Shown piece after piece: positions 11,426 through 52,101 of a stretch of DNA of 64,000 nt. The DNA comes from Muribaculaceae bacterium (GTDB taxonomy: Bacteria > Bacteroidota > Bacteroidia > Bacteroidales > Muribaculaceae): the NCBI GenBank assembly GCA_045133615.1, contig JBGUUQ010000051.1, positions 22,197 to 86,196 on the forward strand. The letters are read 5' to 3'. Numbering within the stretch: position 1 is the stretch's first letter; each line of letters opens with the position of its first letter. Below the pieces are notes generated by a model, which ran no database searches, had not been told where the DNA came from, and saw nothing but the letters and a program-made list of their open reading frames with translations. The position numbers were made by a program, and so were the translations under genes.

Positions 11426-12787
11426 ATGAACGTAACATTGGACAAGACCGGTAATGTGAGCGGAATCCTCACCGTTTCGGTTGAAGAAAAGGACTACCAA
11501 GACAAAGTAAAAAATGACCTCAAAGAAATCGGCAAGCGTCACTCAATCCCCGGCTTCCGTCAAGGTCACGTTCCTTTTGGCGAATTGAATCGCCGTTTTG
11601 GCAAGCAAGTTACAAGCGACGTTATCAATCGTGAAGTATACGACGCTGTCACCGGTTATATCCGCGACAATAAACTCGCCATTCTCGGTGAGCCACTCCC
11701 CATCGAAGTTAAAGAGCTCGACCTTAAGAATCAAAAAGACTTTACTTTCCAATACGAAATCGGTCTCTCTCCCGAAATCAACGTTTCTGTAGACAAAGAT
11801 CTCCAACTTCCTTACAACGAAATCGAAGTCTCTCAAGAAATGATTGACCAACAGAGCCAAAGCCTCCGCGAACGCTTCGGCGCTCAAGTTCCCGGCGAAG
11901 AATTCGAACCCAAAGCACTCGTAAAAGGTTCCCTCATGGAACTCAATGAAGATGGTTCGATTAAAGAAGGTGAAGATGCCATCCAAGTTGTAAGCGGCAT
12001 TCTCGCTCCCATGTACTTCAAAAATGCCGAAGAAGCAGAAAAATTCAACGGCAAAAAAGTAGGAGACAAAGTTGTTTTCAACCCCGCTAACGCTTGGAAT
12101 GGAAACGCTGCTGAATTGGCATCGCTCCTCAACATCGACAAAGAAAAAGCAGCCAATGTCAAAGCCGATTTCGAACTTTCAATTGCCGAAATCATCGTTG
12201 TTAAACTCGCCGACCTCAACGAAGAATTCTTCAAAAACGTATTCGGTGACGACAAAGTAAAGACCGAAGAAGAATACTACGCAGCCATCAAAGACATGAT
12301 TGCACGTCAATTGTCTGGAAACAGCGAATTTTTGTTCCGTAAAGATGCCGAAAAGATTCTCCTTGAAAAATACGGAGATGTCGAACTTCCCCAAGAATTC
12401 CTCAAAAAATGGCTTGTAGCTCGCAACGAAGGTCTTAATGCTGAAAACATCGACAGCGAATTTGAAAAGATGCTTCCCTCCCTCAAATGGCAACTCATCA
12501 AAGAACGCATTGCCGCTCTCGCCGAGGTGAAAATCGAAGAAGCCGATGTTCTTGCTCACGCCAAAGCTATTGCAGCAAATCAATTTGCTCAATACGGCAT
12601 GACCGGTATGGACGACGAAACCCTCACCACTTATGCAAAACGCATCCTCGAAGACAAAAACTATCGTCCCCATATCATCGAAGAAGTAGGCGACATCAAA
12701 TTGTTCGATGCCATCAAGGCAAAAGCAACAATCAACACCACCACCGTTTCTCTCGACCAATTCAAAGAAATGGCCAATAACGCATAA
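11426..12787 (+). CDS. tig: trigger factor
   Basis: 453 aa. The ribosome-binding N-domain motif GFRQGHVP is present, and the gene is followed by clpP-clpX, the conserved tig-clpP-clpX arrangement. Confidence 0.93.
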   Translation: MNVTLDKTGNVSGILTVSVEEKDYQDKVKNDLKEIGKRHSIPGFRQGHVPFGELNRRFGKQVTSDVINREVYDAVTGYIRDNKLAILGEPLPIEVKELDLKNQKDFTFQYEIGLSPEINVSVDKDLQLPYNEIEVSQEMIDQQSQSLRERFGAQVPGEEFEPKALVKGSLMELNEDGSIKEGEDAIQVVSGILAPMYFKNAEEAEKFNGKKVGDKVVFNPANAWNGNAAELASLLNIDKEKAANVKADFELSIAEIIVVKLADLNEEFFKNVFGDDKVKTEEEYYAAIKDMIARQLSGNSEFLFRKDAEKILLEKYGDVELPQEFLKKWLVARNEGLNAENIDSEFEKMLPSLKWQLIKERIAALAEVKIEEADVLAHAKAIAANQFAQYGMTGMDDETLTTYAKRILEDKNYRPHIIEEVGDIKLFDAIKAKATINTTTVSLDQFKEMANNA

Positions 12788-18758: not shown

Positions 18759-19483
18759 TAGATATAATTCCAGCCATCGACATCATCGACGGCAAATGTG
18801 TCCGTCTCACACGTGGCGACTACGATTGCAAGACCGTCTATGGCGAAAATCCGCTTGAAATAGCACGACGTTTTGAAGACGTAGGGTGCCGCCGACTCCA
18901 TCTCGTTGACCTCGACGGAGCCAAATCGCATCATATCGTCAATTACAAAGTACTCGAACAGATTGCCGGTTCCACCCAACTCATTATCGACTTCGGAGGT
19001 GGGCTCAAAAGCGACGAAGATTTGCACATCGCCTTTGAAAGCGGAGCTGCAATGATTACCGGAGGTAGCATTGCCGTAAAAGACCCCGACACCATGCTCC
19101 ATTGGATTTCAACCTACGGAGCCGACCGAATCATCCTCGGGGCCGACACTCGCAACGGCAAAATATCCACTTCAGGGTGGACTGCCGACAGCGATCTCGA
19201 CATAATTCCGTTCATCGAATCCTATGTCTCCAAAGGAATCCGACAAGTCATATCGACCGACATCAACGTCGACGGCACACTGTCAGGACCATCGATCGAC
19301 CTCTACACCCGCATTGCCGATGCCATTCCCGATGTTCACATCATAGCAAGTGGAGGAGTAAGCTCCATCGCCGACATCGAGCATCTCGACCAAGCGTCAA
19401 TCCCCGCAGTGATTGTCGGAAAAGCCATCTACGAAGGTCGCATTTCCCTCAACGACATTTCCCGAATCAACCTCAACCGATAA
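18755..19483 (+). CDS. hisA: ProFAR isomerase
   Basis: 242 aa. The N-terminus [15 protein letters not shown] is typical, and the ATGA overlap with hisH fits an operon. Confidence 0.93.
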
Positions 19484-19489
19484 CTGCCT

Positions 19490-20245
19490 ATGCTTGCCAA
19501 ACGTATCATACCGTGTCTCGACGTAAAAGATGGCACCACTGTAAAAGGTGTCAACTTTGTCAACTTCCGCGATGCCGGCGACCCCGTTGCCCTCGGCAAG
19601 AAATATAGCGAAGATGGAGCCGACGAACTCGTCTACCTCGACATCACCGCATCCCACGAAGGCCGAAAAACATTCATCGACCTCGTTCGCCGCGTTGCCG
19701 AAAACGTAAGCATCCCATTCACAGTCGGTGGAGGCATAAACCAAGTCGAAGACGTCGAGAAACTCCTCAACGCCGGAGCCGACAAAATATCCATCAACTC
19801 GTCAGCCCTCCGAAATCCCGACTTAATCGACGGTATAGCCCGACGATTCGGCAATCAAGTATGCGTCACCGCTATCGACGCACGCTTCGACAACGGAGAA
19901 TGGATTTGTTACGTAAACGGAGGTCGCATCCCCACCGAGCGCCGTCTTTTCGACTGGGCACACGAAGCCCAGGAACGCGGAGCGGGTGAAATCCTCTTCA
20001 CCAGCATGAACCACGACGGCGTAAAGCAAGGCTTCGCTTGCGAAGCCCTTGCCCGGCTTCACGACATCCTTAGCATCCCCGTCATCGCATCCGGTGGAGC
20101 AGGGGACTACTCTCATTTCCACGACGTATTCACACAAGGAAAAGCCGATGCCGCATTAGCCGCAAGCATATTCCACTTCAACGAAATTCCAATCAGCGAC
20201 CTAAAACAATATCTCCACAGTCGCAATATCGATATACGCTTATAA
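19490..20245 (+). CDS. hisF: imidazole glycerol phosphate synthase, cyclase subunit
   Basis: 251 aa. It has the motifs [14 protein letters not shown] and DELV.LDI. Confidence 0.95.
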
Positions 20246-23051: not shown

Positions 23052-24197
23052 ATGGCAAACTTTCCAATAGGGGAGTTGCAACAACAGCGCACTCCCCTTT
23101 ATTTCTACGATCTAAGCCTCCTTCGACTCACTCTTGAGGCTATAAAAACATACTCTCCCGAACCTCACTACTGCGTTCACTACGCCATCAAAGCCAATGC
23201 CAATCCGGTCATTCTCAAAGAGATATGCGCCGCCGGATTCGGTGTCGATTGCGTAAGTGGGGGAGAAATCAATGCCGCACTCGCAGTAGGCTTCCCCGCC
23301 GACAAAATCGTATATGCCGGAGTAGGGAAGAGCGATTGGGAAATCAACATCGGTTTAGACAACGACATCGCATGCTTCAACGTCGAGTCAGCCCCCGAAC
23401 TTGAAATCATCAATCAACTCGCCGTAGCAAAAGGCAAAATCGCAAATATAGCACTCCGCGTCAACCCCAACATCGACGCACACACCCACCATTACATCAC
23501 CACCGGATTGGCTGAAAATAAGTTCGGAATCTCGATGGAAATGCTCGACACCATCGTTGACAGATGCCTCAATCTGCCCGCCATCAATCTCATCGGCTTG
23601 CACTTCCACATCGGCTCACAAATCACCGACAATGCCCCCTTCCAAATCCTCTGCGAGCGCATCAACGCTCTCCAAGACCATTTTGAAGCAAAAGGCATCA
23701 CCTTCCATAGCATCAATGTTGGAGGAGGTCTCGGCATCGACTACGACACCCCCGACGCAAACCCGATTCCCGACTTCAAAGGTTATTTTGAATCCTTCCG
23801 AAGCAACCTCAAACTACGCAGCAACCAACAGCTCCATTTCGAGTTGGGACGTTCCGTTGTAGCACAATGCGGTTCACTTATCACCCGCGTACTCTATGTA
23901 AAAGAAGGACTCGAAAAGAAATTTGCAATCGTCGATGCAGGTTTCACCGAACTCATTCGTCCGGCATTGTATCAGGCTCACCACAAAATCGAAAACATCA
24001 CAAGCAACGCCCCCGTCGACACCTACGACGTAGTAGGACCCATCTGCGAATCAAGCGACTGCTTCGGTGAAAAAGAGCAACTGCCAGGAGTCTCTCGTGG
24101 CGACCTTCTCGCATTGCGTTCCGCAGGAGCCTACGGCGAAATCATGGCATCGCAATACAACTGCCGCACACTTCCCGCATCATACTTCGCCGAATAA
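23052..24197 (+). CDS. lysA: diaminopimelate decarboxylase
   Basis: 381 aa. It has the fold-III PLP decarboxylase motifs (YAIKAN, HFHIGSQ, GGGLGIDY, GPICES.D), and lysC is adjacent. Confidence 0.9.
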   Translation: MANFPIGELQQQRTPLYFYDLSLLRLTLEAIKTYSPEPHYCVHYAIKANANPVILKEICAAGFGVDCVSGGEINAALAVGFPADKIVYAGVGKSDWEINIGLDNDIACFNVESAPELEIINQLAVAKGKIANIALRVNPNIDAHTHHYITTGLAENKFGISMEMLDTIVDRCLNLPAINLIGLHFHIGSQITDNAPFQILCERINALQDHFEAKGITFHSINVGGGLGIDYDTPDANPIPDFKGYFESFRSNLKLRSNQQLHFELGRSVVAQCGSLITRVLYVKEGLEKKFAIVDAGFTELIRPALYQAHHKIENITSNAPVDTYDVVGPICESSDCFGEKEQLPGVSRGDLLALRSAGAYGEIMASQYNCRTLPASYFAE

Positions 24198-24266
24198 AAT
24201 ATATTGGCGAATACGTCAAGGATAACAGATGTCGATAACGATTGCGAAGCAATCATTAGATAATAG

Positions 24267-24308
24267 CCGGGCATTGAAGTGCTTTCGTACTTCAATGCCC
24301 GGTATTTT
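24267..24308 (+). terminator. rho-independent terminator after lysA
   Basis: CCGGGCATTGAAGT-8 nt-ACTTCAATGCCCGG forms a perfect 14-bp stem followed by TATTTT. Confidence 0.75.
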
Positions 24309-24462
24309 CGCCTAAACAATTCAATTCTGAAAGAATTGTTATTGATTATCAATGAAATTACATCCATTCCTTTTGAAATTTCGAGCATCTCGAAGTCTGT
24401 TTGCAAATTAATGACACTATAACGAGAGAAATCACACAACAGGGCACACCTCCATAAGCCCT

Positions 24463-24495
24463 ATTTAACATAATGTAAGTTATAAGAAAAATATT
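24463..24495. repeat. attL: dif-like site ATTTAACATAA-TGTAAG-TTATAAGAAAA (+ATATT)
   Basis: It has 11-6-11 architecture. The left arm is the exact reverse complement of the E. coli dif XerD arm TTATGTTAAAT. Positions 24474-24495 are repeated perfectly at 31136-31157. Confidence 0.75.
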
Positions 24496-24496
24496 A

Positions 24497-24504
24497 TACA
24501 TTTG
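24497..24504 (+). promoter_or_regulatory. candidate -7 box TACATTTG at the left provirus end
   Basis: Matches TAnnTTTG, 29 nt upstream of the first provirus ATG (24534) and 2 nt inside the att repeat boundary. Confidence 0.4.
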
Positions 24505-24533
24505 CTCTCGTAATTCTAAAATCATTTACAAAC

Positions 24534-24740
24534 ATGAACAAACAAACGAAAAAACAAATCGATTTTGACCGCTACGACGCCGTCAATTTACGCGCTGAAC
24601 TTGAGATGCGCGATGATATTATTTTTGATTTGGAAGGCAAATATAATTCCCTTGTGATGTCTTACAACGCTTTGCTTGAATTTGTAAAAACCATTTTAAA
24701 TAATCCCGAACAATCAATTAAAATCTCAAAACTACAATGA
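24534..24740 (+). CDS. provirus small protein, 68 aa, helical/coiled-coil-like, function unknown
   Basis: It is the first ORF after the att site and candidate promoter, and its stop overlaps the next ATG (ATGA). Confidence 0.5.
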   Translation: MNKQTKKQIDFDRYDAVNLRAELEMRDDIIFDLEGKYNSLVMSYNALLEFVKTILNNPEQSIKISKLQ

Positions 24741-24901
24741 AACGTATCCAACTTGTATCCATCCTCATGGCAACCGCCAATCGTCCTCAAACAATCGCCT
24801 TTGAATCTTACGAAGCGTTCAGCAAGTGGCGCAACGAGAACTACAAAGACATTCTACAGTACACCGTCCAAGAAATCGACTTTGTATCAAATGAACTTTA
24901 A
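24737..24901 (+). CDS. provirus small protein, 54 aa (below the ORF-track size cut-off)
   Basis: My own translation is MKRIQLVSILMATANRPQTIAFESYEAFSKWRNENYKDILQYTVQEIDFVSNEL. It bridges the upstream ORF (ATGA overlap) and the M15 peptidase (11-nt overlap) without any gap. Confidence 0.4.
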   Translation: MKRIQLVSILMATANRPQTIAFESYEAFSKWRNENYKDILQYTVQEIDFVSNEL

Positions 24902-25271
24902 GTATTTCGTACCCGCAGAGTTTGAGTATTCAGAGACCGCAAAACAATTAGGTATCAACAACAAGATACCTAATTGCTTGTGGCTCAACCTACAAAACCT
25001 CGTTCTAACGGTCCTCGACCCCGCTCGTGAGCAACTCGGCTGCCCCATTCGAGTAAACAGCGGTTACCGCTCTTTTGAACTCAATAAAGCCGTCAAAGGT
25101 GCTAAGAACTCCTACCACATGCAAGCCCGCGCTGCCGATATTGCCCCCATTGCCTATCGCAACACCTCTGAAGAATGGCAAAATAAACTTGACCGCCTTT
25201 ATGATATTCTTCAGCAACTCCCCCACACTGAATTAATTAGATATCCAAATTTTATACATGTAGCCTTATGA
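24891..25271 (+). CDS. peptidase M15 family (zinc D-Ala-D-Ala carboxypeptidase-like), putative endolysin
   Basis: VNSGYRSFELNKAVKGAKNSYHMQARAADI ... FIHVAL matches the SGYR-N-GG-S-H-G-A-D ... HV metal-ligand pattern of M15A/M15_3 peptidases. The start is moved to the ATG at 24891 (MNFKYFVPAEF); the track start at 24753 is a TTG in the region occupied by the 54-aa ORF. Confidence 0.75.
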   Translation: MNFKYFVPAEFEYSETAKQLGINNKIPNCLWLNLQNLVLTVLDPAREQLGCPIRVNSGYRSFELNKAVKGAKNSYHMQARAADIAPIAYRNTSEEWQNKLDRLYDILQQLPHTELIRYPNFIHVAL

Positions 25272-25339
25272 AAAAAATCATCTCAATTCTCAACTTCATC
25301 ATCAAGATTTGTAAAGCAATCTTATCCATTTTCAAATGA
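25268..25339 (+). CDS. 23-aa cationic amphipathic/hydrophobic micro-ORF (MKKIISILNFIIKICKAILSIFK)
   Basis: My own translation. The ATG overlaps the peptidase stop (ATGA) and its stop overlaps the Rep ATG (ATGA), so it exactly fills the junction. Confidence 0.3.
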   Translation: MKKIISILNFIIKICKAILSIFK

Positions 25340-26940
25340 AACTCGAAAACTTTATAAGTAACTGCCGACAACCCCAAATCATCTACCGTAATGGACGGAG
25401 TATCTCCGTTCGTTGTGGTAGATGTCCTGATTGCCTCGCCTCCCGTTCCGCTCACCTCACTCAAATGTGCGTATCAGAGCAACGTAAATCTTTTGCTACC
25501 TTTTTTGCTACTCTCACCTATAACGAGTATAACATACCCCGCGCCCATGTTCTCCGTGAAACGCGTGATGATGGACGCTTACGAGTTACTTATATAGATA
25601 AAACCTCACGCCCAACCAAAACCCGCGGATTTAAGCTACTCCCCGAATATAATACCCCTCTCGCCTCTTTCGATGTTGCCGACCCCGCCAACTTCAACGA
25701 CTTTATACAAAAATCTTCAATATTACCCAAATATGCCACAAAGAAACAAATACAATACTACAAGACACATGAAATTGTTCGCTATATCCGTAAAAAGGAC
25801 ATACAGAACTTTTTTAAGCGCTTACGCTTCCGTCTTTCTCGCCTTGGCTACTCGCCGATTACGTTCTACGCTTGCGGTGAATACGGGCCCGACACCTTCC
25901 GTCCACATTTCCACATCTTGCTACACGTCTATGACTCCGAAACTTCCGCCATCATTGAAAAATTTGTGCGTGAAAGTTGGAAACTTGGAACTGTACGTAA
26001 ATTTTCCGCTGTTACCAAACCTTCGGACGTCTCAAGCTACGTTGCGGGCTATGTCAATTCCTTTACTCACCTCCCTCGTTATCTTAGGTTTGATGTCCTC
26101 AAGCCTTTTTCGTCGCATTCCGTTTACTACGGTACTTCGACTTTCGCACCACTTCGAGACTATCTTTATGAAAATCCCGACTGCTCCGCTTTTGAACATG
26201 ATGTACGACTACCTGACCAAACTGTTCATTACTTCCCTACCGCTTCGCTTATGCGTAGAATATACCCCCGATGCTACAACTATGACCGTCAAACTGATAC
26301 GGACCTACTTAAAATATATACATGCTTCACGAAACTATCACAAACGTACAATACAGACAAATGCACCGACCTCTCCTACTACCTCCTTACAGACTCCGAC
26401 AACTTCTACAATAGAACCCTCCTTAACCTCCTCGACATAGGAACCCCCCAACAATCCCCCTACTACTCCCTCTCTACTCTATCTAATAATTACTCCTCCC
26501 TCAATATAGATTTAATCCCCACTTCATGGGACCACTTCGCTACTCTCACCGAGAGTGAAATCGACGAATCGGTTTCACTCTCCTACCAACGTAAAATCTT
26601 TTCTCGTGTCTACTCCACTATTCTAATGTCCAAAAACTTCATAGAATGGAACTGTCAAAACTACTCTCCCCGCACCGTCTTGTCACTCATCAAGCAACAC
26701 TATCAAAACCACAGACTCGACCAACTCCGCCAACAACTTGAAGCACTTCAAGAATATAACTTAATCACATGTAACGATGACTACTCACTATTTTACCCCG
26801 CTTCCTCGACTACCGACCATTACAACTCTTTACTCTCATCATCTTCTTATATCAAGCACATCAACCACCAAAAAGATGTAAAGTATGAAAAAATGATTAA
26901 ACACAAACAACAAAATGACGCTAACTTAATATTTGTATAA
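25336..26940 (+). CDS. Microviridae replication initiation protein (VP4 / gpA-like rolling-circle Rep)
   Basis: 534 aa. It has an N-terminal CGRCPDC zinc-finger-like motif, motif I FFATLTY, the HUH motif HFHILLH (25906-25926), and a double-Tyr motif SYVAGYVNS that mirrors phiX174 gpA YVAKYVNK. Confidence 0.9.
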   Translation: MKLENFISNCRQPQIIYRNGRSISVRCGRCPDCLASRSAHLTQMCVSEQRKSFATFFATLTYNEYNIPRAHVLRETRDDGRLRVTYIDKTSRPTKTRGFKLLPEYNTPLASFDVADPANFNDFIQKSSILPKYATKKQIQYYKTHEIVRYIRKKDIQNFFKRLRFRLSRLGYSPITFYACGEYGPDTFRPHFHILLHVYDSETSAIIEKFVRESWKLGTVRKFSAVTKPSDVSSYVAGYVNSFTHLPRYLRFDVLKPFSSHSVYYGTSTFAPLRDYLYENPDCSAFEHDVRLPDQTVHYFPTASLMRRIYPRCYNYDRQTDTDLLKIYTCFTKLSQTYNTDKCTDLSYYLLTDSDNFYNRTLLNLLDIGTPQQSPYYSLSTLSNNYSSLNIDLIPTSWDHFATLTESEIDESVSLSYQRKIFSRVYSTILMSKNFIEWNCQNYSPRTVLSLIKQHYQNHRLDQLRQQLEALQEYNLITCNDDYSLFYPASSTTDHYNSLLSSSSYIKHINHQKDVKYEKMIKHKQQNDANLIFV

Positions 26941-26942
26941 CT

Positions 26943-28769
26943 ATGGCTAATAAACTTTTTCAAGAACTAAACTTAAAGCATAACCCCTCCCGTAACGGTT
27001 ATGACCTCTCCGCACCTTGCAACTTCACAGCAAAAGCAGGCGAACTCCTCCCAATCTTCCACCGTACCGTAATGCCCGGTGAAAAATTCCGCATCCGTAA
27101 ATCACACTTTACCCGCACCTCCTCCGTTAACACAGCTGCACAAACCCAAATTAAAGAGTACTTCGACTTCTTCTTTGTGCCTTACCGCTTACTTTGGAAA
27201 GAATCTCCCCAAATTCTCACCAACAATCTTAAGAACCCCGTTACCGCTACCTCTCCCACCTCCAACCGCTCTATCGGTACCGCTACCCCCCAATTCGACT
27301 ACGAAGCATGGCGCGACTCCGGACTTTCCATCCTTTCAACGCTTAAAAACGAATTCGGCTATAACCGTGCTGCCCTCTCCGCAAAGCTATTGAATCATCT
27401 TGGCTTCCCCTACATCTCCTCCGACCAAATTAAGGACCACGATTTCGATGACTACTACGGACCTCAGTACCTCTCCGCTTATCCCCTACTCGCGTATCAA
27501 TGCATCTATTATAGTTTCTTCCGTAACACACAATGGGAAACTAATCAACCCTATAACTATAATGTAGACTATCTTGGTACCTCCGCTATTCTTCCTATCG
27601 ACTTTGCCCTTTCCTCCTCATGGATTAACTATTGGAACAATCCTACCCTCTTTGACATCCGCTACGCCAACTACCCTAAAGACCTAATTTTCGGTGTATT
27701 CCCCGACGCCCAATTTGGTGACGAAGCCGTTGTCGACATCACCGGTTCTACTGTTGCATCCGACGACATTACCAACAATCCCGTAGTTGACTCCGACGGA
27801 AATGCCGTTACTGTCAATCCCAACGTTATCACCACAACCGCCGGCTCTTCAGATTCCCGCTATTACGCCAAAGGACTCCTCGACTCTACTGCCGACGGCT
27901 CACTTTATGCCCAACTCTCATCTCTCGAACAATCCTTGACCGCCAATTTCTCTATCCTTGAACTCCGCAAAGCACAATTTTTGCAAAAGTATAAAGAAAT
28001 CATCGGCTCCGGACGAAACGATTACAAAGCACGTATCGAAAAAATTTTCGGTACCTCCGTCTCTGACACCCTCGCCAATATACCTATCTACCTCGGTGGC
28101 GCCTCCTCCGTTGTCAAAATCTCCGAAGTAACAAACAGTAACCTCGCTGACGAAGACTCTGAAGCCCTTATCAAAGGAAAAGGTACCGGCTCAGGTGACT
28201 CCGACCTAATCGAATTTGAAGTACCCGCAGAACATGGACTAATCATGTGTATTTACCACTGCCAACCCGTTGTAGAATACTCCTTGACCGCCCTCCATTT
28301 CGACCTCGTTAAGACCGAATATGACGACTACGCCAATCCTATTTTCGACCAACTTGGCTTCGAAGAACTTCCGAGCTACTTCCTTGACTGTACAATCCCC
28401 CATGCTTATGATTATACTTCAGGCGGAACCCGCTACACAGGTGTAAATAACCTTGGCTACACTACCCGCTATTATGATTATAAGACCTCCCTTGGTCAAA
28501 CCCTTGGCGACCTCCGCGAAACTGATGTTAATTGGATAGCTCCCGTAAATCTCGACTATCTCAAAAACTACGTCTCAAACAATCGCTTATACATTAACGC
28601 CAACTTCTTTAAAGTAAACCCCGCTATCCTTGACCCCATTTTCTACCGTCAAGTTGGAACCTCCAACACTATCGACCGAGACTATGTAACCTCCGACCAA
28701 TTCAAAGTATTTTGCAACTTTGAAGTAAATGCAGTTCGTCCCCTCGACTACAACGGTGTACCCTATTAA
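26943..28769 (+). CDS. Microviridae major capsid protein (VP1 / F-like)
   Basis: 608 aa. The N-terminus (HNPSRNGYDLSAPCNFTAKAGELLPIFHRTVMPGEKFRI) follows the conserved microvirus capsid N-terminal pattern. Size and position after Rep are as in Bacteroidetes-associated microviruses. Confidence 0.88.
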   Translation: MANKLFQELNLKHNPSRNGYDLSAPCNFTAKAGELLPIFHRTVMPGEKFRIRKSHFTRTSSVNTAAQTQIKEYFDFFFVPYRLLWKESPQILTNNLKNPVTATSPTSNRSIGTATPQFDYEAWRDSGLSILSTLKNEFGYNRAALSAKLLNHLGFPYISSDQIKDHDFDDYYGPQYLSAYPLLAYQCIYYSFFRNTQWETNQPYNYNVDYLGTSAILPIDFALSSSWINYWNNPTLFDIRYANYPKDLIFGVFPDAQFGDEAVVDITGSTVASDDITNNPVVDSDGNAVTVNPNVITTTAGSSDSRYYAKGLLDSTADGSLYAQLSSLEQSLTANFSILELRKAQFLQKYKEIIGSGRNDYKARIEKIFGTSVSDTLANIPIYLGGASSVVKISEVTNSNLADEDSEALIKGKGTGSGDSDLIEFEVPAEHGLIMCIYHCQPVVEYSLTALHFDLVKTEYDDYANPIFDQLGFEELPSYFLDCTIPHAYDYTSGGTRYTGVNNLGYTTRYYDYKTSLGQTLGDLRETDVNWIAPVNLDYLKNYVSNNRLYINANFFKVNPAILDPIFYRQVGTSNTIDRDYVTSDQFKVFCNFEVNAVRPLDYNGVPY

Positions 28770-28791
28770 TTAACTTTTTAAATTATTCATT

Positions 28792-29232
28792 ATGGAAACA
28801 ACCACTTTACATTCATGCATGACTTACGGAATAAGTCATACTAAGGAATATAAACCCTCCGTAATTGCACCCTTTCTCATTGATAAAGATGCAGACGGTA
28901 AGTTTCTCAAGCGACATTCGGATGCTTATTTACTGCTCCGCCAAAACAGACTTCAGGAAACTATCGGTGCTGAGTCTATCCGCGCCTACCTCGACCAACA
29001 AAGAGCTATGCATGGTACCTCCCTCGTGCCTCACGACAATCTCTCCGACGAAGAACTTTTCAGCCTCATAGAGCCTAAGGAAGTCAACAACCTTACTACC
29101 GCTTATGAGTTTGCTAACTACCTTAAAGAGAATGGTGATAAGGTAAAAGCCAAACAAAAGGAAATCGTCAGTCGCAAAAATAGCCTCGCTGACTTCTACA
29201 AGAAAATCGGTTATAAATCTAACGACAAATAA
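28792..29232 (+). CDS. putative internal scaffolding protein (VP3-like)
   Basis: 146 aa. It is an acidic/helical protein located between the capsid and pilot genes. The assignment rests on position and size only. Confidence 0.45.
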   Translation: METTTLHSCMTYGISHTKEYKPSVIAPFLIDKDADGKFLKRHSDAYLLLRQNRLQETIGAESIRAYLDQQRAMHGTSLVPHDNLSDEELFSLIEPKEVNNLTTAYEFANYLKENGDKVKAKQKEIVSRKNSLADFYKKIGYKSNDK

Positions 29233-29234
29233 CT

Positions 29235-30566
29235 ATGCATATAATATTTCGTGACGAATATGGGACCATTGGTATCCGTGGCGATACCAAAGTCAATCTC
29301 TTCGGAATTGATGACCTTATCATTGGTTCTGCTGCTGCGTCTCTTGGCTCCTCGGTTATTGGTGGTATCTTCGGTTCCTCCTCTCAAAAAGACACCAACG
29401 CTACCAACTTGCAGATAGCCCGCGAGACAAACGAGCAAAACTACAAGATTTGGCAAGAACAAAAAGAGCATAATATCGACATGTTTAACATGGAGAATCA
29501 GGCGAATATCGACATGTTTAATATGGAGAATCAGGCAGCTATAGACATGTGGAATATGCAAAACGCGTATAATGACCCCTCGGCACAAGCCGAGAGGTTG
29601 TTAAACGCCGGTTTCAATCCACAACTCGCTCTCACTTCCTCGACTGCTGCCGGTAATGCTACCTCTGCTCCCTCCGTCGGTTCGCTCTCCTCCGCCTCCG
29701 CTACTCCCGCTCAAGCACCCACCATGCAAGGAACAACCGTTACCTCTCCATTTCAAGTCGCTTGGCAGAACGCTATGCAAGGTATTCAAACCATGGTAGA
29801 CGGCATTAATAAGGCTGCTCTAATGCGCCCTACGATTGACAATTTGAACTCCGGTACAAACGTCAACAACAATCAAGCCGTTAAACTTGGTTTTGAAGCT
29901 AACTATCAGAAGATAGTTAACAAATACGCTCCTACGCTCTTTGCTGAAGATGTTGAGACAAAGAAGTATAATAATGACCTTTTGGCTATGGATGTTACCT
30001 ACGGACGTGAAACGCGACAACTTCAAATAGCTTTGCTTCGTGCCGATTTTGCTTATAAGTCTTTAGACATAGAAAAGCAAACCATTCTTAACGCTTATCT
30101 CCCCGGCGAAAAGCAATTAGATATGATGACTAAAGGCGTGATGTATAGTAATCTTGTCCTCGATGGCAAAATGAAAGCTAAGGATTTGGCAAATTATTTC
30201 ACCCGTTATCTCATGGTAAATATTGCTCATGCTAATGCTCTTAACTCTCAAAAAGAAGGTCAAGACATTAAGAATGAATCCGATAAGCTTGACCTTGACA
30301 ATAAAAAAGCATTTCTCGAAGGATTTAAAACTAAGGAAGACGGAAAAATACTTGAATCGCTTGGCGGCTATTTGGCTGAATCTATGTTATTTGATGCCGA
30401 ATTGCAAGATACGTGGATTAATCCTACTCGTGAAATTGATGCTATTCACGATTATAAAACCGCTAAACGCCGTAAAACTGGAGTTACGGGCTATTTTCAT
30501 GATTTTATTGACCAATTTAGCGAATATGGACAAAAACTTTCCCCCTTTTTTAATTCGGCTAAATAA
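29235..30566 (+). CDS. minor capsid / DNA pilot protein (VP2 / H-like)
   Basis: 443 aa. It has a Gly/Ser-rich N-terminus (IGSAAASLGSSVIGGIFGSSS), Q/N-rich helical repeats and the conserved LLNAGFNPQLAL motif seen in gokushovirus and Alpavirinae VP2. Confidence 0.8.
   Translation: MHIIFRDEYGTIGIRGDTKVNLFGIDDLIIGSAAASLGSSVIGGIFGSSSQKDTNATNLQIARETNEQNYKIWQEQKEHNIDMFNMENQANIDMFNMENQAAIDMWNMQNAYNDPSAQAERLLNAGFNPQLALTSSTAAGNATSAPSVGSLSSASATPAQAPTMQGTTVTSPFQVAWQNAMQGIQTMVDGINKAALMRPTIDNLNSGTNVNNNQAVKLGFEANYQKIVNKYAPTLFAEDVETKKYNNDLLAMDVTYGRETRQLQIALLRADFAYKSLDIEKQTILNAYLPGEKQLDMMTKGVMYSNLVLDGKMKAKDLANYFTRYLMVNIAHANALNSQKEGQDIKNESDKLDLDNKKAFLEGFKTKEDGKILESLGGYLAESMLFDAELQDTWINPTREIDAIHDYKTAKRRKTGVTGYFHDFIDQFSEYGQKLSPFFNSAK
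29472..29570 (+). repeat. 33-bp tandem repeat inside VP2: two near-identical copies plus a degenerate third
   Basis: Copies at 29472-29504 and 29505-29537 differ at 2 of 33 nt and encode NIDMFNMENQA twice. 29538-29570 encodes the diverged AIDMWNMQNAY. Confidence 0.85.
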
Positions 30567-30580
30567 ATTATCTTTGTGGT

Positions 30581-30706
30581 ATGGATATTTTTTTAACATT
30601 TGGACCCTTTGTGCCTTTCTTGTTGCTCTTTGTGGTAATGATATTAGGCGCTATTTGGCTCATTATCATTTTGGTAAAAGCCATTATTAAAGAATTAAAG
30701 AAATAA
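30581..30706 (+). CDS. 41-aa single-pass membrane micro-ORF (holin-like candidate)
   Basis: My own translation is MDIFLTFGPFVPFLLLFVVMILGAIWLIIILVKAIIKELKK: one about 26-residue hydrophobic span and a Lys-rich C-tail. It starts 15 nt after the VP2 stop and is followed by a hairpin plus T-run. Confidence 0.4.
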   Translation: MDIFLTFGPFVPFLLLFVVMILGAIWLIIILVKAIIKELKK

Positions 30707-30726
30707 TCCCTACCCTTTACACTTCG

Positions 30727-30766
30727 GGCGCGCGCGTGCTACACGTGTGCGCCTGTTGTTTATTAT
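30727..30766 (+). terminator. GC-rich hairpin plus T-rich run ending the provirus gene block
   Basis: GGCGCGCGCGTG-cta-CACGTGTGCGCC forms a 12-bp stem with two G-T pairs, followed by TGTTGTTTATTAT. Confidence 0.5.
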
Positions 30767-30836
30767 CCTAAAAGTCGACAAATTGAGGGCTGATCAGCTT
30801 CAGCTCTCTCGATTTATTGGAATAAAACGGAACAAC

Positions 30837-30986
30837 GCGAAGCCCGTAAAAAGATAAAAAGCGAAGCGTCTCCATTTTCGGAAATAACACCGAGCGCGGA
30901 AGACCGCGCGAGACCTCTACGAAAATACGGACGGAGTGCATCCCGTCGAGCGAAGCGAGCGGGACCGCCCTACTCTGATGCGAAGC
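30837..30986 (+). repeat. four same-strand copies of GCGAAGC (30837, 30861, 30950, 30980)
   Basis: These are exact 7-mers read directly from the sequence. About 4 per strand would be expected by chance in the whole 64 kb. Confidence 0.8.
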
Positions 30987-31100
30987 CATTACACTTTTGC
31001 CCGAAAGGGTTCGCGGTTTGCTCTTGCTCCCGCGAACAATATTTCCTTGGCTTATTATAGCAAAAGTGACAGAAAAATATTACCTTTGTAAACTGCTCAC

Positions 31101-31122
31101 TCATGTTAAATTCATGTTAAAT
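31101..31122 (+). repeat. tandem 11-mer TCATGTTAAAT x2 (inverted XerD-arm-like half sites)
   Basis: There are two perfect adjacent copies. ATGTTAAAT is the reverse complement of the attL arm ATTTAACAT. The pair sits 2 nt upstream of the attR arm. Confidence 0.8.
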
Positions 31123-31124
31123 CT

Positions 31125-31157
31125 AATTAACCTATTGTAAGTTATAAGAAAAATATT
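31125..31157. repeat. attR: degenerate-arm dif-like site AATTAACCTAT-TGTAAG-TTATAAGAAAA (+ATATT)
   Basis: The central region and right arm are identical to attL. The left arm differs at 3 of 11 positions. Confidence 0.75.
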
Positions 31158-31254: not shown

Positions 31255-31695
31255 ATGACGTTGCCCTCAAAAATCATATCAACACTTGTTTCCATTACAG
31301 TTGTGATGGCTTCATTGTTGCAATTTCATCACCACGATTGCGATGGCAACATTTACATTCATCTGACCACACTCGACGACATTGCGCTCGGATACTCCGG
31401 TCTGCACATTGACGAATGTAACCATTCCGATGACCATCACCACACCACAGATTGCAACGACCACGAAAATTGCGCACTTCACATCGCCATTTCCAAAGCC
31501 ACAAAACAAAGTCAGCAATCCGTTGCCTCCCCGTCATTCGACTTGTCATATATTTTGGCAGACATTCTTGAATTGCAAAAACCGCAAAATGAAACTCATA
31601 TTTCATACAATACACACATATTTTTCCTAATCTGCCCCAATTCGCAGTTACCCTCATTGCTGCGAGCACCACCGACAATCGCCCAATACAAATAG
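31255..31695 (+). CDS. small membrane-anchored His/Cys-rich protein (putative metal-binding accessory protein of the efflux operon)
   Basis: 146 aa. An N-terminal hydrophobic anchor is followed by HHHDCDG...HIDECNHSDDHHHTTDCNDHENCALH. The gene is immediately upstream of, and co-oriented with, the RND metal efflux genes. Confidence 0.6.
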   Translation: MTLPSKIISTLVSITVVMASLLQFHHHDCDGNIYIHLTTLDDIALGYSGLHIDECNHSDDHHHTTDCNDHENCALHIAISKATKQSQQSVASPSFDLSYILADILELQKPQNETHISYNTHIFFLICPNSQLPSLLRAPPTIAQYK

Positions 31696-31738: not shown

Positions 31739-32947
31739 ATGAAACTACATATTTCTATCCTATCTATAGGACTTGCCTTGGCATGTCTTAGTTGCTCACA
31801 TTCAGCCAAAGACGATGGTCTGGGCCACGACCATAGCCATCATCATCACGAAGAACCCGCCCACACTCATGGTCATCACGAAGAGCCCGAAGGTCATCAC
31901 CACGAACACGAGCACGCCAAAGACGCTCACAGCAACGATGAAATCGTACTCGAACCCTCTGCTGCTCACCGTTTTGGCGTTCAGGTACAAACAATTACGC
32001 CTCGCGACTTCAACGAAATTGTTAAAGTTTCCGGACAAATCATATCCGCACCCGGCGACCAAGGTGTCGCATCTGCCCAATCGGCAGGCATCGTATCCAT
32101 CGCCGGCGGCATCACAGAAGGATGTCGTATCTCCGCAGGAACATCCATAGCACATATATCGGCACAAAAAATGGCTGGAGGCGATCCCAACGCCACCGCA
32201 AAAGCCAACTTAGATGCCACCAAGCGCGAACTCGACCGCATCACCCCTCTACATGCCGACGGCATAGTCTCCACCAAAGACTTCAATGCCGCCAAGCAAG
32301 CCTACGAACTCGCCCGCGCAGCATATTCCGGCAACTCATCCGGTAGCGCAGTTTCCTCCCCGATAGCCGGAGTCATAACCCAGATTCTCGTTCAGCAAGG
32401 CCAATTTGTCGAAGCCGGACAACCCATAGCCGTAATATCTAAAAACTCTCGACTCACATTACGCGCCGACCTTCCGGAAAAATACTACAACTTCCTACCC
32501 ACCATCACCACAGCAAATTTCCGCCCTTCCTACTCCGACTCAATCATATCATTAAGCAAAATCAACGGCACAGTCATATCCGCATCCTCCTCCGCTGCCC
32601 CGTCGCAGTCCGGATATATTCCCGTCTACTTCTCATTCGACAACGACGGCTCTGCCATTCCCGGCACATTTGCCGAGATATATCTCATCGGAGCCACCCG
32701 TCCAAACGCAATAGTCGTCCCTATCGAAGCCATCACCGAGCAGCAAGGCAAATACTACGCCTATGTCCGTCTCGATGAAGAATGTTACGAAAAACGCCTC
32801 GTTTCATTAGGCAAATCCAACGGAAGTGAAGTCGAAATTTTGTCCGGACTCAATATCGGCGACAACGTTGTCTCCCATGGAGCTATCATCGTAAAACTTG
32901 CCGAGTCAAGCGGAGTTATCCCCGAAGGACATAGCCATAACCATTAA
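31739..32947 (+). CDS. RND efflux periplasmic adaptor (CzcB/CusB-like) with a His-rich N-terminal tract
   Basis: 402 aa. It has a lipoprotein signal (LALACLSC), the tract HDHSHHHHEEPAHTHGHHEEPEGHHHEHEH, and then an MFP barrel-sandwich/beta-barrel region. Confidence 0.88.
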   Translation: MKLHISILSIGLALACLSCSHSAKDDGLGHDHSHHHHEEPAHTHGHHEEPEGHHHEHEHAKDAHSNDEIVLEPSAAHRFGVQVQTITPRDFNEIVKVSGQIISAPGDQGVASAQSAGIVSIAGGITEGCRISAGTSIAHISAQKMAGGDPNATAKANLDATKRELDRITPLHADGIVSTKDFNAAKQAYELARAAYSGNSSGSAVSSPIAGVITQILVQQGQFVEAGQPIAVISKNSRLTLRADLPEKYYNFLPTITTANFRPSYSDSIISLSKINGTVISASSSAAPSQSGYIPVYFSFDNDGSAIPGTFAEIYLIGATRPNAIVVPIEAITEQQGKYYAYVRLDEECYEKRLVSLGKSNGSEVEILSGLNIGDNVVSHGAIIVKLAESSGVIPEGHSHNH

Positions 32948-41171: not shown

Positions 41172-43988
41172 ATGGGTGAATTTATTGATAGCTTGTCAAT
41201 TTTTGGCGCAAGGGTCAACAATCTCAAGAACATTGACGTGACCATTCCGCACAACAAACTTTCGGTCATCACCGGACTGAGTGGCAGCGGAAAATCCTCT
41301 CTTGCCTTCGACACCATTTACGCCGAAGGCCAGCGTCGCTATATTGAGACTTTCTCTTCCTATGCCCGCAACATGCTTGGGGCATTGGAGCGTCCCGATG
41401 TCGACAACATTTCGGGCCTTAGTCCCGTGATTGCCATTGAGCAAAAGACTATCAATCGCAACCCGCGAAGCACTATCGGCACCACTACCGAAATCTACGA
41501 TTTCCTGCGACTCCTATTCGCACGCGTAGGCACCGCCAGAAGCTACATCTCCGGTGAGCCGATGATCAAGTACACCGAAGAGCGTATTATCGACCTCATT
41601 CTCCAAAAATACAATGGTCGTCGCATATACATCCTCGCGCCACTCATCAAAAACCGCAAAGGCCACTACAAAGACCTTTTTGAGACTCAACGTAAAAAGG
41701 GCTACCTCAATGTTCGTGTCGATGGTGAGATTCGTGAGATTACATTCGGAATGAAACTCGACCGTTACAAAAACCACTCCATAGAACTCGTCATCGACAA
41801 AATGGTAGTCTCCTCTCGCGATGCCGAGCGTCTGCGCGACACCGTAAGCACCGCCCTAAAGCAAGGCGACAAGCAACTGATGATATATGATGTCGATGCC
41901 GACTCCATTGGCCATTACAGCCAACTGTTGATGGATCCTGTCAGCGGTATTTCATATCGGGAGCCGGCTCCTCACAACTTCTCATTCAACTCTCCGCAAG
42001 GAGCCTGCCCATGCTGCAAAGGACTGGGATACGTAAATATTGTCGATAGAAACAAACTTATCCCCGACAACTCGCTGTCTATCCACGACGGCGGAATAGT
42101 CGCCCTTGGAAAATACAAGAATGCCATGATATTCTGGCAGATAGCGGCTATATGCGAGAAATACGGCCACACACTCAAAACCCCGATTAAAGACCTTTGC
42201 GAAGAAGCTATCAACGATATTCTCAACGGCACTACCGAGCGACTCGCTGTAAAAACAGAGACTCTTAGCACCTCCAACTATTTCCTCTCCTACGAAGGAA
42301 TAGTAAAATATATCGAACTCCAGCAAAACGACGAAGCATCATCTGCCGCTCAAAAATGGAGCGGACAGTTCTTCTCGCGAGCCGTATGTCCGGAATGTAA
42401 TGGACAGCGACTCAACCGTGAAGCTCTACACTTCTTCATCGGCGATAAAAACATTGCCGACCTTTCTGCTCTCGATATTTCCGACCTATACCGGTGGGCG
42501 CTTTCGGCCGACAGCCTCCTAAGCCCCTCACAAGCAATCATTGCCGGCGAAATTCTCAAAGAAATTCGCACTCGTCTTAAATTTCTCGTCGACGTAGGGC
42601 TCGAATACCTCTCTCTCAATCGCAATTCTGCCACTCTCTCCGGAGGAGAAAGCCAACGCATCAGACTTGCCACTCAATTAGGCTCCGAACTGGTCAACGT
42701 GATGTACATACTCGACGAACCAAGCATCGGACTACATCAACGCGACAACAAGCGACTGATCGATTCGCTGAAACGCCTGCGCGATGCCGGAAATTCTGTT
42801 ATCGTCGTTGAGCACGACAAAGACATGATGCTCGAAGCCGATTATATTGTCGACATAGGCCCGAAAGCCGGACGAAAAGGGGGTGAAGTGGTATTTTCGG
42901 GAACTCCGAAAGAGATGCTCTCCACCCACACTCTCACAGCCGACTATCTCAACGGCAACAAAACCATCCCCGTACCTACCGCTCGACGTAAAGGAAACGG
43001 GAAAAATATCATCCTCTCAGGATGCACCGGCAACAACTTGCGCGACGTTACATTCACCCTCCCGTTGGGGCAATTTGTATGCGTGGCGGGAGTGTCTGGC
43101 AGCGGCAAATCAAGCCTTGTAAACGGCACTCTGCAACCGATTCTAAGCCAACGATTCTATCGCTCCAACCAAGAGCCCTTGCCTTACAAGGAGATTCTCG
43201 GAATCGACAACATCGATAAAGTCGTTACAGTCGACCAATCACCCTTAGGACGCTCTCCGCGCTCAAATCCGGCCACCTATACCGGTGTTTTCGCCGACAT
43301 CCGCAGTCTCTTTGTCAACCTTCCGGAAGCCAAAATCCGTGGTTACAAGCCGGGACGTTTCTCCTTCAATGTATCCGGCGGTCGATGCGAATCATGCAAC
43401 GGAAATGGCTATAAGACCATCGAAATGAACTTCCTCCCCGACGTCCTTGTCCCTTGCGAAGTCTGTGGCGGAAAACGCTACAATCGAGAAACTCTTGAAG
43501 TGCGCTTCAAAGGCAAATCCATTGCCGACGTGCTTGATATGACAATAAATCAGGCTGTCGAATTTTTTGCCGGAATACCCAATATTCTCAACAAAATAAA
43601 GGTTCTGCAAGACATTGGATTAGGATATATCAAACTCGGACAACCGTCAAGCACACTCTCCGGAGGCGAAAATCAGCGTGTAAAACTCGCTACCGAGCTC
43701 GCCAAACGCGATACGGGAAAGACCCTGTTCATCCTTGACGAACCCACTACAGGACTCCATTTTGAAGACATCAACGTTCTTTTAGGCGTACTCAATCGTC
43801 TCGTCGATAAAGGCAACACCGTCCTTGTCATAGAGCACAATCTCGACGTTATAAAATGCGCCGACCATATTATTGATATGGGACCCGAAGGGGGTAAAAA
43901 CGGCGGAAAAATCATCGCTACAGGCACTCCCGAACAGATTGCCGAGGGAAATTCCCCGACAGCCGAATTCATACGCGCTGAGCTCTGA
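41172..43988 (+). CDS. uvrA: excinuclease ABC subunit A
   Basis: 938 aa. It has duplicated ABC ATPase modules (GLSGSGKSSLAFDT, GVSGSGKSSLV) and zinc-finger Cys clusters (CPCCKG, CPECNG, CESCNGNG...CEVCGG). Confidence 0.97.
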   Translation: MGEFIDSLSIFGARVNNLKNIDVTIPHNKLSVITGLSGSGKSSLAFDTIYAEGQRRYIETFSSYARNMLGALERPDVDNISGLSPVIAIEQKTINRNPRSTIGTTTEIYDFLRLLFARVGTARSYISGEPMIKYTEERIIDLILQKYNGRRIYILAPLIKNRKGHYKDLFETQRKKGYLNVRVDGEIREITFGMKLDRYKNHSIELVIDKMVVSSRDAERLRDTVSTALKQGDKQLMIYDVDADSIGHYSQLLMDPVSGISYREPAPHNFSFNSPQGACPCCKGLGYVNIVDRNKLIPDNSLSIHDGGIVALGKYKNAMIFWQIAAICEKYGHTLKTPIKDLCEEAINDILNGTTERLAVKTETLSTSNYFLSYEGIVKYIELQQNDEASSAAQKWSGQFFSRAVCPECNGQRLNREALHFFIGDKNIADLSALDISDLYRWALSADSLLSPSQAIIAGEILKEIRTRLKFLVDVGLEYLSLNRNSATLSGGESQRIRLATQLGSELVNVMYILDEPSIGLHQRDNKRLIDSLKRLRDAGNSVIVVEHDKDMMLEADYIVDIGPKAGRKGGEVVFSGTPKEMLSTHTLTADYLNGNKTIPVPTARRKGNGKNIILSGCTGNNLRDVTFTLPLGQFVCVAGVSGSGKSSLVNGTLQPILSQRFYRSNQEPLPYKEILGIDNIDKVVTVDQSPLGRSPRSNPATYTGVFADIRSLFVNLPEAKIRGYKPGRFSFNVSGGRCESCNGNGYKTIEMNFLPDVLVPCEVCGGKRYNRETLEVRFKGKSIADVLDMTINQAVEFFAGIPNILNKIKVLQDIGLGYIKLGQPSSTLSGGENQRVKLATELAKRDTGKTLFILDEPTTGLHFEDINVLLGVLNRLVDKGNTVLVIEHNLDVIKCADHIIDMGPEGGKNGGKIIATGTPEQIAEGNSPTAEFIRAEL

Positions 43989-44738
43989 ACATCTACACCA
44001 AATCTCTCTTTCCCAAAATTAGAGTCCATCTCTCTTGATTAATCCGTTTTTATAGGCGTAAAAAATTTTTTGATTTTTACGCTCATCCTTGTTTGCAATT
44101 TAAAATACGCAATTCTCATTATGTTATAAAACATATTTTTCTCACATTTCTACTTATTCGTCTGTTTTTCAGTAATTTACGCTTACTATTATATAACTAC
44201 AACCAATTTCAACATCTGACACCTCCATTAATTTACATTTACATACTTGCGATTTACAATCACATACAAACATTTGCTTTAACATGTTCAGCACCGCAAT
44301 TTCAATTTCCAAATTCACAAACCACTCGCTTTGCGTTTGTAAATTCGTATTTCTGTTTATCTTTCAGAACAGCAAAATTACATTCGTATCGTCGATTTAC
44401 TCCTGTTTACTCAGCCCATCATCGTGGTTACATTCTTTAATTTCATCCATTTTAATTAATTAGCAATCATCGTAATTTACTGATATTCATACTAATTATA
44501 CATAAAAATCAATCTTTTAGTTTAATATATCGCATAAACCATACCAAATTCCGCCAGCATCCACATGTATCGCCGTAGTAATACACTAATACCCACTAAA
44601 TTACAGCAATATCGTAAACGATTTATTTAACAAAATCCACTCTCTATACCCTACCCCATAATTTGACTATTCTCATTATTAAATTACTCAAGTTGGATCA
44701 TTTATCTTTGCAAATTTGGAAATTCCAATTTTAATAAT

Positions 44739-44746
44739 TACATTTG
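44739..44746 (+). promoter_or_regulatory. candidate -7 box TACATTTG
   Basis: Matches TAnnTTTG, 29 nt upstream of the ATG at 44776. A second box, TATCTTTG, lies at 44703-44710. Confidence 0.4.
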
Positions 44747-44775
44747 CATATCGAAAGTTTTAAATTATAAACACA

Positions 44776-45312
44776 ATGGACATCGTTTCACGAATCAAAA
44801 TTTTCATGAATTACCTGCAAATTGCAAATTCTCAATTTGCAGATACATGTAAAATTCCCCGCCCTACAATTTCTCAGATCCTAAACGGACGCAATAAAAA
44901 GATCAGCGATGAAATCATTGGCAAAATTCATGAAGCCTACCCTTCGCTTTCCGTCCTTTGGCTGATGTTTGGCGAGGGAGAGATGGTGATTGATTCAAAT
45001 ATTAAAATCTCAGAGCCTCAAAACGAAGACACAATCGACTTCGACAACCCGCATATATCTGTCGATGAGGGCATTATGCAATCGATTGACTTCGATGAAA
45101 ACTTTTCCGATTCCATGTCAGAAAATTCAGAAACGCAAACTGATGACCAAAATCAGCCAGAAGCACAAGAAATTACAATCAAATCGACTGAAAAGACAGC
45201 ACAACAATCCAATTCAATTTCATTCTGTGCCGACAGCTCCAAAAAGATTGTCAACATTATGGTATTTTACAGCGACAACAGTTTTCAGCAATTCACCCCC
45301 ATCAAACCATAG
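44776..45312 (+). CDS. helix-turn-helix (XRE-like) DNA-binding protein with an acidic low-complexity linker
   Basis: The N-terminus is SRIKIFMNYLQIANSQFADTCKIPRPTISQILNGRNK.S.E...KI.EAYP.LS..WLM.GEGEM. The same domain signature recurs in the ORF at 51745. Confidence 0.7.
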   Translation: MDIVSRIKIFMNYLQIANSQFADTCKIPRPTISQILNGRNKKISDEIIGKIHEAYPSLSVLWLMFGEGEMVIDSNIKISEPQNEDTIDFDNPHISVDEGIMQSIDFDENFSDSMSENSETQTDDQNQPEAQEITIKSTEKTAQQSNSISFCADSSKKIVNIMVFYSDNSFQQFTPIKP

Positions 45313-45420
45313 CAAACATTCCATCCGATTAATTTCAATAAATCCAATTCTTTTCCGATATTTGTACTCGACAAAGAATTGGATTTTTTCTATCAATCGA
45401 CTATCACATATATCCAACCA

Positions 45421-51667: not shown

Positions 51668-51744
51668 CCATACCCCAAAAGAAAAATTTCAATGATTATC
51701 GTGCAATTTCAATCTTTAACAATAAAATCTCAAAAAGATTAATT

Positions 51745-52098: not shown

Positions 52099-52101
52099 GA
52101 T

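Follow-up and report, generated by a model that had tools for sequence, protein, structure and literature searches.

In a host of Bacteroidales type, an Alpavirinae-like provirus of the Microviridae occupies the 6.7 kb at positions 24496-31124 of the window, by which we mean the whole 64,000-nucleotide (64-kb) stretch of DNA that was analysed. Our results indicate that it is most probably the provirus of an integrase-free microvirus with a dif-mimic attP, which was integrated by the host XerC/XerD at a chromosomal attB. This mechanism is not new, as it has been published for the same phage group (PMC3091885) and proven experimentally in a sister subfamily (PMC7062461). What our analysis adds is the attP junction, the arm swap between two phages, a Bacteroidales dif candidate, a negative result on the GC skew, and a conserved attP-proximal module with clustered XerD half-sites. 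Read in this way, the provirus would be a natural example of Xer-exploiting lysogeny in gut Microviridae, with the crossover placed within 13 bp.

The provirus and its two dif-type sites

Family scans of the provirus returned PF02305, PF23343, phrog_514, phrog_942 and pilot-protein PHROGs, that is, an F/VP1 capsid protein, a superfamily I rolling-circle Rep and a pilot protein within a block of about 6 kb. All its genes lie on the + strand, in the order two small ORFs, endolysin, Rep, capsid, scaffold-like protein, pilot protein and a 41-aa ORF. In none of these ORFs was an integrase or recombinase family matched by the Pfam and PHROGs scans, and ORF68, ORF54 and ORF41 matched no Pfam or PHROG family. 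The features to which we refer are the following, in window coordinates.

23052-24197, + strand: diaminopimelate decarboxylase (lysA-like) of the host left flank, from the family scan
24463-24490, - strand: attL, a complete dif-type site, TTTTCTTATAA-CTTACA-TTATGTTAAAT, the same as the deduced attB
24491-24495, no strand: ATATT, by which the identity of attL and attR extends past the XerC arm; ATAT is also found in the second phage and in the host flank of the second strain
24534-24740, + strand: ORF68, the first phage ORF after attL; no family match; 94% identical in the second phage
24737-24901, + strand: ORF54; no family match; 94% identical in the second phage
24891-25271, + strand: peptidase M15 endolysin, from the family scans
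25336-26940, + strand: rolling-circle replication initiator (VP4-like), from the family scans
26943-28769, + strand: major capsid protein (MCP; Phage_F / VP1), from the family scans and the phage relatives
28792-29232, + strand: internal scaffolding protein homologue, with 44-50% identity to annotated scaffolding proteins of free relatives
29235-30566, + strand: DNA pilot protein (VP2/H-like), from PHROGs and the relatives
30975-31124, + strand: non-coding phage module next to attP; conserved in two phages that are otherwise diverged
31101-31122, + strand: two tandem XerD-arm-like 11-mers (TCATGTTAAAT twice), inverted relative to the attR XerD arm and 2 nt away from it; part of the conserved module
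31125-31152, - strand: attR, a hybrid of the host XerC arm TTTTCTTATAA, CTTACA and the degenerate phage XerD arm ATAGGTTAATT (8/11 matches)
31739-32947, + strand: HlyD/CzcB-like membrane-fusion protein of an RND efflux operon, host right flank, from the family scan

On the host side, lysC and lysA lie to the left of the provirus, and an RND efflux operon (HlyD/CzcB-like protein, pump and OEP) followed by SOD lies to the right; a SusC/SusD pair found further right is consistent with a Bacteroidota host. No xerC or xerD gene is found in the window, so the presence of the Xer machinery is assumed from the literature.

The phage DNA shows several features of its own. In the pilot gene, a 33-nt tandem duplication (29472-29537, 94% identical) codes for a repeated NIDMFNMENQA motif, and the GC skew of the provirus coding strand (25000-29000) is extreme, down to -0.43, which exceeds that of the surrounding host DNA. 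In another sample, a variant of this provirus (L012) has a pilot gene that is 97% identical and two deletions in the non-coding region between this gene and attR (30582-30641 and 30773-30823).

A repeat finder recovered the two sites within one direct repeat of 35 nt, at 24461-24495 and 31123-31157, whose copies agree at 32 of 35 positions and have a spacing of 6,662 nt. On the + strand, attL reads ATTTAACATAA-TGTAAG-TTATAAGAAAA and attR reads AATTAACCTAT-TGTAAG-TTATAAGAAAA; the centre, the right arm and the ATATT behind it are identical, and the left arm is mismatched at 3 of 11 positions. In the conventional dif orientation, which is the minus strand here, attL becomes TTTTCTTATAA-CTTACA-TTATGTTAAAT and attR becomes TTTTCTTATAA-CTTACA-ATAGGTTAATT, and it is on this strand, opposite to the phage genes, that both sites are read in the order XerC arm, centre, XerD arm. 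A search of the 64-kb window for the 28-mer, allowing up to 3 mismatches, gives attL and attR alone, against 0 occurrences expected (100 shuffles). The site attL is intergenic, lying between lysA and the efflux operon. Moreover, when reverse-complemented, its left arm equals the E. coli XerD arm TTATGTTAAAT exactly, the sole match with 0 mismatches, just as the preliminary description of this DNA had claimed.

For scoring, a dif PWM was built from ten mutually consistent sites that Kono et al. had independently predicted for Bacteroidetes. With this matrix, attL scores 31.2 bits on the minus strand and attR 18.4 bits, the next best site of the window reaches 8.8 bits, and 20 shuffled windows give at most 17.7 bits; furthermore, attL matches the Bacteroidetes dif consensus at 24 of 28 positions. 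All the sequence statements behind the earlier proposal, that the att sites have the 11-6-11 architecture of dif with one perfect and one degenerate XerD-type arm, were verified by this analysis.

Origin of the arms and the region next to attP

The assignment of the arms to host and phage is now shown by an attP observed in a metagenome and by a second phage at the same attB. Scaffold L147 (ENA ERZ28614352) carries 21 nt of the phage DNA that lies left of attR, then AATTAACCTAT-TGTAAG-TTATAAGAAAA, then the phage DNA that lies right of attL and continues into ORF68 and rep, and this attP junction is exactly the predicted one. Between attP and attB, the XerC arm and the centre are identical and the XerD arm agrees at 8 of 11 positions. 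A conspecific strain (strain 2, a 183-kb contig, ENA ERZ15610158 NODE_28), whose host flanks are 98.2% identical to those of the window, has another microvirus inserted in the same place, between lysA and the efflux operon; the amino-acid identity between the two phages is 40% for Rep, 63% for MCP, 53% for the scaffold protein and 29% for the pilot protein. In strain 2, attL reads CTTCCTTATAA-CTTACA-TTATGTTAAAT and attR reads TTTTCTTATAA-CTTACA-CTATGTAAAAT. The XerD arm of attL and the XerC arm of attR are thus unchanged across the strains and therefore derived from the host, and the XerC arm of attL and the XerD arm of attR differ and are therefore derived from the phages. Both integrations yield one deduced attB, TTTTCTTATAA-CTTACA-TTATGTTAAAT, and since the XerC arm of the window phage equals that of the host, the window attL is identical to it. 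The identical core in strain 2 is 13 bp long, consisting of the centre and the inner 7 nt of the XerC arm, and brackets the crossover. Two claims of the preliminary description, that the degenerate XerD arm came from the phage and ended up at attR, and that attL reconstitutes a complete dif-type site, are borne out by the L147 attP and the arm swap for the former and by the agreement of both events on the window attL for the latter.

The unoccupied site was searched for by way of contigs encoding identical lysA, HlyD, ABC ATPase, HisF, SOD and LysC, and every one of these either has a provirus there or ends close to the site; in the metagenome collection, exact searches with the predicted attB junction and with the 26-mer containing the CTTACA centre gave no empty site. 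In IMG/VR the window phage had no match to its attP core and no MCP relatives. Two contig ends in SRR33263756 (L140 from 24466 and L010 from 31128, each k-1 before the core end) could point to attB and attP being present along with attL and attR, and they are not relied on here, as the other end of L140 misfits.

Among sequenced phages, the closest come from rodent faeces; they are complete circular microviruses of 6.6-7.2 kb, and their MCP identity is at most 53%. A comparison with the attP regions of related free phages had been proposed as a check, and all of the four closest free genomes turned out to carry a dif-like attP: their best dif-PWM match scores 17.8-21.7 bits, above every shuffle, and is located in the non-coding gap after the pilot gene on the strand opposite to the genes, which is the position and orientation of attP in the window phage. 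The XerC arms and centres of these sites differ, for example TTATCTCATAA-TACATA and GAATCTCATAA-TGCATA, as would be expected if every phage matches the dif of another host.

In the DNA flanking attP on both sides, the non-coding part together with ORF68 and ORF54 (window 30975-31124 and 24496-24901; contig L184 12768-13178 and about 19480-19629) is 85-94% conserved in two phages with Rep and pilot identities of 40% and 29%. It resembles an exchangeable module for lysogeny or integration, or else the product of recombination between co-resident prophages; homologues of ORF68 and ORF54 were found in none of the four closest free phages. In each of the six phages examined, XerD-arm-like 11-mers cluster just past attP on its XerD side (window 31101-31122; L184 about 19606-19627; L154-L157), and elsewhere such 11-mers, with at most 2 mismatches, occur only about once per kb. 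Both proviruses have two tandem inverted 11-mers at 2 nt from the arm, and the free relatives have copies in direct orientation 16-36 nt off. These accessory 11-mers are probably the "additional dif-like sequence" of Krupovic & Forterre.

The chromosomal site and the GC skew

A clear dif consensus for Flavobacteria and Sphingobacteria, TTGTnnTATAA-TTTATA-TTATGTTAAAT, is found in the supplementary table of Kono et al., and the sites that they predict for Bacteroidia disagree with one another and lie far from the skew shift points. The sequence TTTTCTTATAA-CTTACA-TTATGTTAAAT provides a concrete dif candidate for a Bacteroidales lineage, within a group whose published dif predictions are inconsistent. 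As a benchmark, one genome per species was scanned for TTCTTATAA-N6-TTATGTTAAAT, with the arms fixed and the centre free, which gave at least 120 loci; the species of the window is not among the matches listed. Most of these matches come from Bacteroidota, and each contig has a single one; among their XerC arms TTTTCTTATAA is the most frequent (42/120), and among their centres TTTATA; the CTTACA centre occurs in none of the 120 dif-type sites sampled from the matches listed. The Bacteroidales chromosomes L042 and L108 carry both attB arms exactly. Where at least 2 kb is available on each side of a listed site (n=47), the skew changes from + to -, the signature of the terminus, at 27 sites and in reverse at 2; altogether 20 of the 47 are without the + to - pattern at the 3-kb scale, including all the Sediminibacterium genomes sampled. 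Because both arms recur in Bacteroidota, and because 27 sites against 2 among the 47 lie at the terminus signature, the arms of attL are those of genuine dif sites in this phylum, and only the centre CTTACA is unusual.

The sampled Sediminibacterium dif-type sites (L023, L028, L029, L093, L100 and L126) have negative skew on both sides at the 3-kb scale. A conserved dif can therefore be without a local sign change, and caution is due in validating dif by skew.

The preliminary description had looked for dif at the GC-skew switch, and this expectation failed, the skew being negative on both sides of the site in two strains. On the + strand it ranges from -0.10 to -0.23 over the 24 kb left of attL, from -0.06 to -0.27 over a further 6 kb left in strain 2, and from about -0.14 to -0.34 over the ~27 kb right of attR; in dif orientation, the 20-kb flanks have skews of +0.24 and +0.16. 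No sign change of the GC skew was found within at least 30 kb left or ~27 kb right of the site in the two strains. At 58-64 kb the skew flattens over a SusC/SusD/zincin locus, which we attribute to local composition and reject as a signal of origin or terminus. The absence of a skew switch does not refute the identity of attB as a dif, because 20 of the 47 benchmark sites behave likewise and published dif sites can be offset, Kono et al. reporting distances of up to a few percent of the genome length between dif and the skew shift point. We regard attB as the putative working dif of the host; it may lie near the terminus, with the shift point beyond the stretches covered here. In any case, the question is raised why this site and the GC-skew switch do not coincide.

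One Logan contig, L148, departs from the window 224 nt left of attL, and an inversion was considered as an explanation for the absent switch; the alternative flank has the same skew sign, and L148 was rejected as evidence because it is probably mis-joined. In L148, positions 1-1653 hold a different flank (LOG-family and DUF4271 genes), which is joined to the window at 24239; six other Logan contigs stop at 24268, exactly k-1 past 24239, and a hairpin with a perfect 14-bp stem lies at 24267-24302. The 30-mer and the hairpin together (24239-24302) are probably a repeated intergenic or terminator element which breaks or mis-joins assemblies, L148 included.

Proposed integration, alternatives and known systems

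The phage carries a 28-bp dif-mimic attP, TTTTCTTATAA-CTTACA-ATAGGTTAATT in dif orientation. This site is oriented against the genes and falls in the non-coding interval that separates the pilot gene from the small ORFs preceding rep. According to the mechanism that we propose, the host XerC/XerD would pair the attP of the double-stranded replicative form with attB, TTTTCTTATAA-CTTACA-TTATGTTAAAT, and strands would be exchanged at the borders of the identical 6-bp centre. Of the two products, attL would join the phage XerC arm to the host XerD arm, which here equals attB and is still a complete dif-type site, and attR would join the host XerC arm to the degenerate phage XerD arm. As is typical of an IMEX, the element has no recombinase of its own, an 11-6-11 dif-mimic attP, and flanks that consist of a dif site and an arm-swapped hybrid site. 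Catalysis by XerC/XerD would follow by analogy with the systems compared below. The preliminary description also supposed that the provirus is held in place, and the degenerate XerD arm may lower excision, in analogy with TLCphi and the gonococcal island, where degenerate XerD arms reduce the FtsK-driven excision (PMC9226527). Speaking against a provirus held in place, the attP junction is present in a metagenome (L147), and Xer-integrated gokushoviruses are known to excise continuously (PMC7062461).

Another reading takes attB to be an ectopic or secondary dif-type site inside a replichore, used as a landing pad by microviruses, with the true dimer-resolution site elsewhere. We consider this rather unlikely. 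It would agree with the single skew sign over at least 30 kb left and ~27 kb right in two strains, with the local + to - switch at which 27 of the 47 same-arm benchmark sites do sit, and with the unusual centre. However, the other 20 benchmark sites are also without this pattern at the 3-kb scale, and the offset from the shift point allowed by Kono et al. would accommodate a dif here as well. Moreover, a chance match of 31 bits is very unlikely, so the presence of an ectopic copy would have to be explained as well; the genes on both sides have housekeeping roles (lysC, lysA, the his operon, the efflux operon) and form no island; and no second dif-like site is found in the 64 kb. A more specific version, to which we give a still smaller chance, puts attB inside a replichore and outside the zone in which FtsK activates XerD, and an activator supplied by the phage would then be needed; the candidate would be a cassette of ORF68, ORF54 and the accessory XerD half-sites, analogous to XafT.

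Integration of the CTXphi type, in which the packaged ssDNA folds into a forked hairpin of two inverted dif-like sites and XerC alone exchanges one strand pair irreversibly, is very improbable. Though the genome is ssDNA, the inverted XerD-arm-like 11-mers lie 2 nt from the attP XerD arm, and the same analogy was raised for Prevotella proviruses by Krupovic & Forterre, the inverted elements are XerD half-sites only, with 6.1 bits for the best inverted full site, and the extra half-sites of the free relatives are direct rather than inverted. Compared with shuffled sequences, the 162 nt of the attP region on the viral strand show no better folding (z = +0.69; 148 of 200 shuffles fold as well), and on these fold statistics a CTXphi-like ssDNA hairpin attP was rejected. 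The centre is also identical at 6/6 positions between attP and attB and the duplex attP is complete, as in the gokushovirus that integrates from its dsDNA form (PMC7062461). Hardly any credit is due to recombination without Xer, either RecA-dependent or by microhomology over 13-27 bp, or by an unlinked host integrase, with the likeness to dif incidental. A shared core of this length is short yet adequate for rare homologous events, but two different phages have the same 11-6-11 architecture fitted to one host site, four free relatives keep a dif-like site at the same position with other XerC arms and centres, the XerD arm of attB is a consensus conserved across phyla, and there is experimental precedent in the sister subfamily (PMC7062461).

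Integration by XerC/XerD, the reading that we prefer, can be compared with what is known of related phages. Krupovic & Forterre (2011) described dif-like att sites for microvirus proviruses of Bacteroidales and proposed the hijacking of XerC/XerD (PMC3091885). Their BMV1-7 (Bacteroides and Prevotella; Alpavirinae; PMC3091885) resemble the window provirus in phage group, in the gene order rep, MCP, scaffold-like ORF, pilot, in size (6.1-6.7 kb), in having no integrase, and in the imperfect dif-like direct repeats. The duplicated core of BMV1 is 13 bp (PMC3091885), the same length as the core mapped in strain 2, and the Prevotella proviruses of the set have an additional dif-like element near one end (PMC3091885). 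In contrast to BMV1-7, the window provirus is a new sequence, whose MCP shares no more than 53% identity with any entry of the phage collection, and the observed attP junction, the two-phage arm swap, the dif-like attP in free relatives and the negative skew-switch test go beyond that study (PMC3091885).

The closest mechanistic analogues, as judged by comparison, are the enterobacterial gokushoviruses and TLCphi. For the E. coli gokushoviruses, Kirchberger & Ochman (2020) showed by experiment that xerC, xerD and both arms are required (PMC7062461). The EC6098 prophages (PMC7062461) are likewise Microviridae at the host dif, without an integrase and with an intact dif kept on one side; the host dif is kept upstream, most of the variation in the phage dif, which lies on the other side, concerns the spacer and the XerD arm, and integration proceeds from the dsDNA form and is reversible (PMC7062461). 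They differ from the window phage in subfamily and host phylum; there the E. coli dif is known and experiments were done, whereas here the case is made from sequence, with a putative terminus location, and the spacer is identical between attP and attB. Phages of the TLCphi type, IMEX of Vibrio cholerae (PMC9226527, PMC6744903), share the duplex attP with a poor XerD arm and a prophage lying between dif and an attP-like site, but TLCphi needs its own Xer activation factor XafT, and no such domain was found by Pfam and PHROGs in the small ORFs of the window phage, which may still encode a non-homologous activator. CTXphi, the example named in the preliminary description, is also an integrase-free ssDNA phage that uses XerCD at dif; however, it has a folded ssDNA hairpin attP made of two inverted sites, with partial centre homology and irreversible integration, whereas the window phage has an identical centre, a complete duplex site and no stable ssDNA fold predicted. 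It is not the best comparator, given the fully homologous centre and the ssDNA that forms no hairpin attP.

Besides the provirus, some features of the host DNA were observed. The intergenic region between lysA and the dif-type site contains an indel-rich patch that distinguishes the strains (window 24320-24370, L184 about 12614-12650), and the window version has the short palindromes AATTCTGAAAGAATT and TTGATTATCAA. Two low-GC patches may be acquired DNA: one at 43000-46000 (0.39 against about 0.45-0.50), which holds an ORF with an HTH domain (44776-45312), and another at 51000-54000 (0.35), with ORFs without a Pfam match (52102-52611 and 52860-53768) beside a RadA/Sms-like gene (50303-51667). 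Histidine-rich repeats of the HHHEEP and HGHHEEPE types (31828-31911) are found N-terminally in the HlyD/CzcB-like protein that lies immediately right of the provirus, and His and Cys are also abundant in the 146-aa ORF at 31255-31695, which suggests that the efflux operon is a metal-efflux operon.
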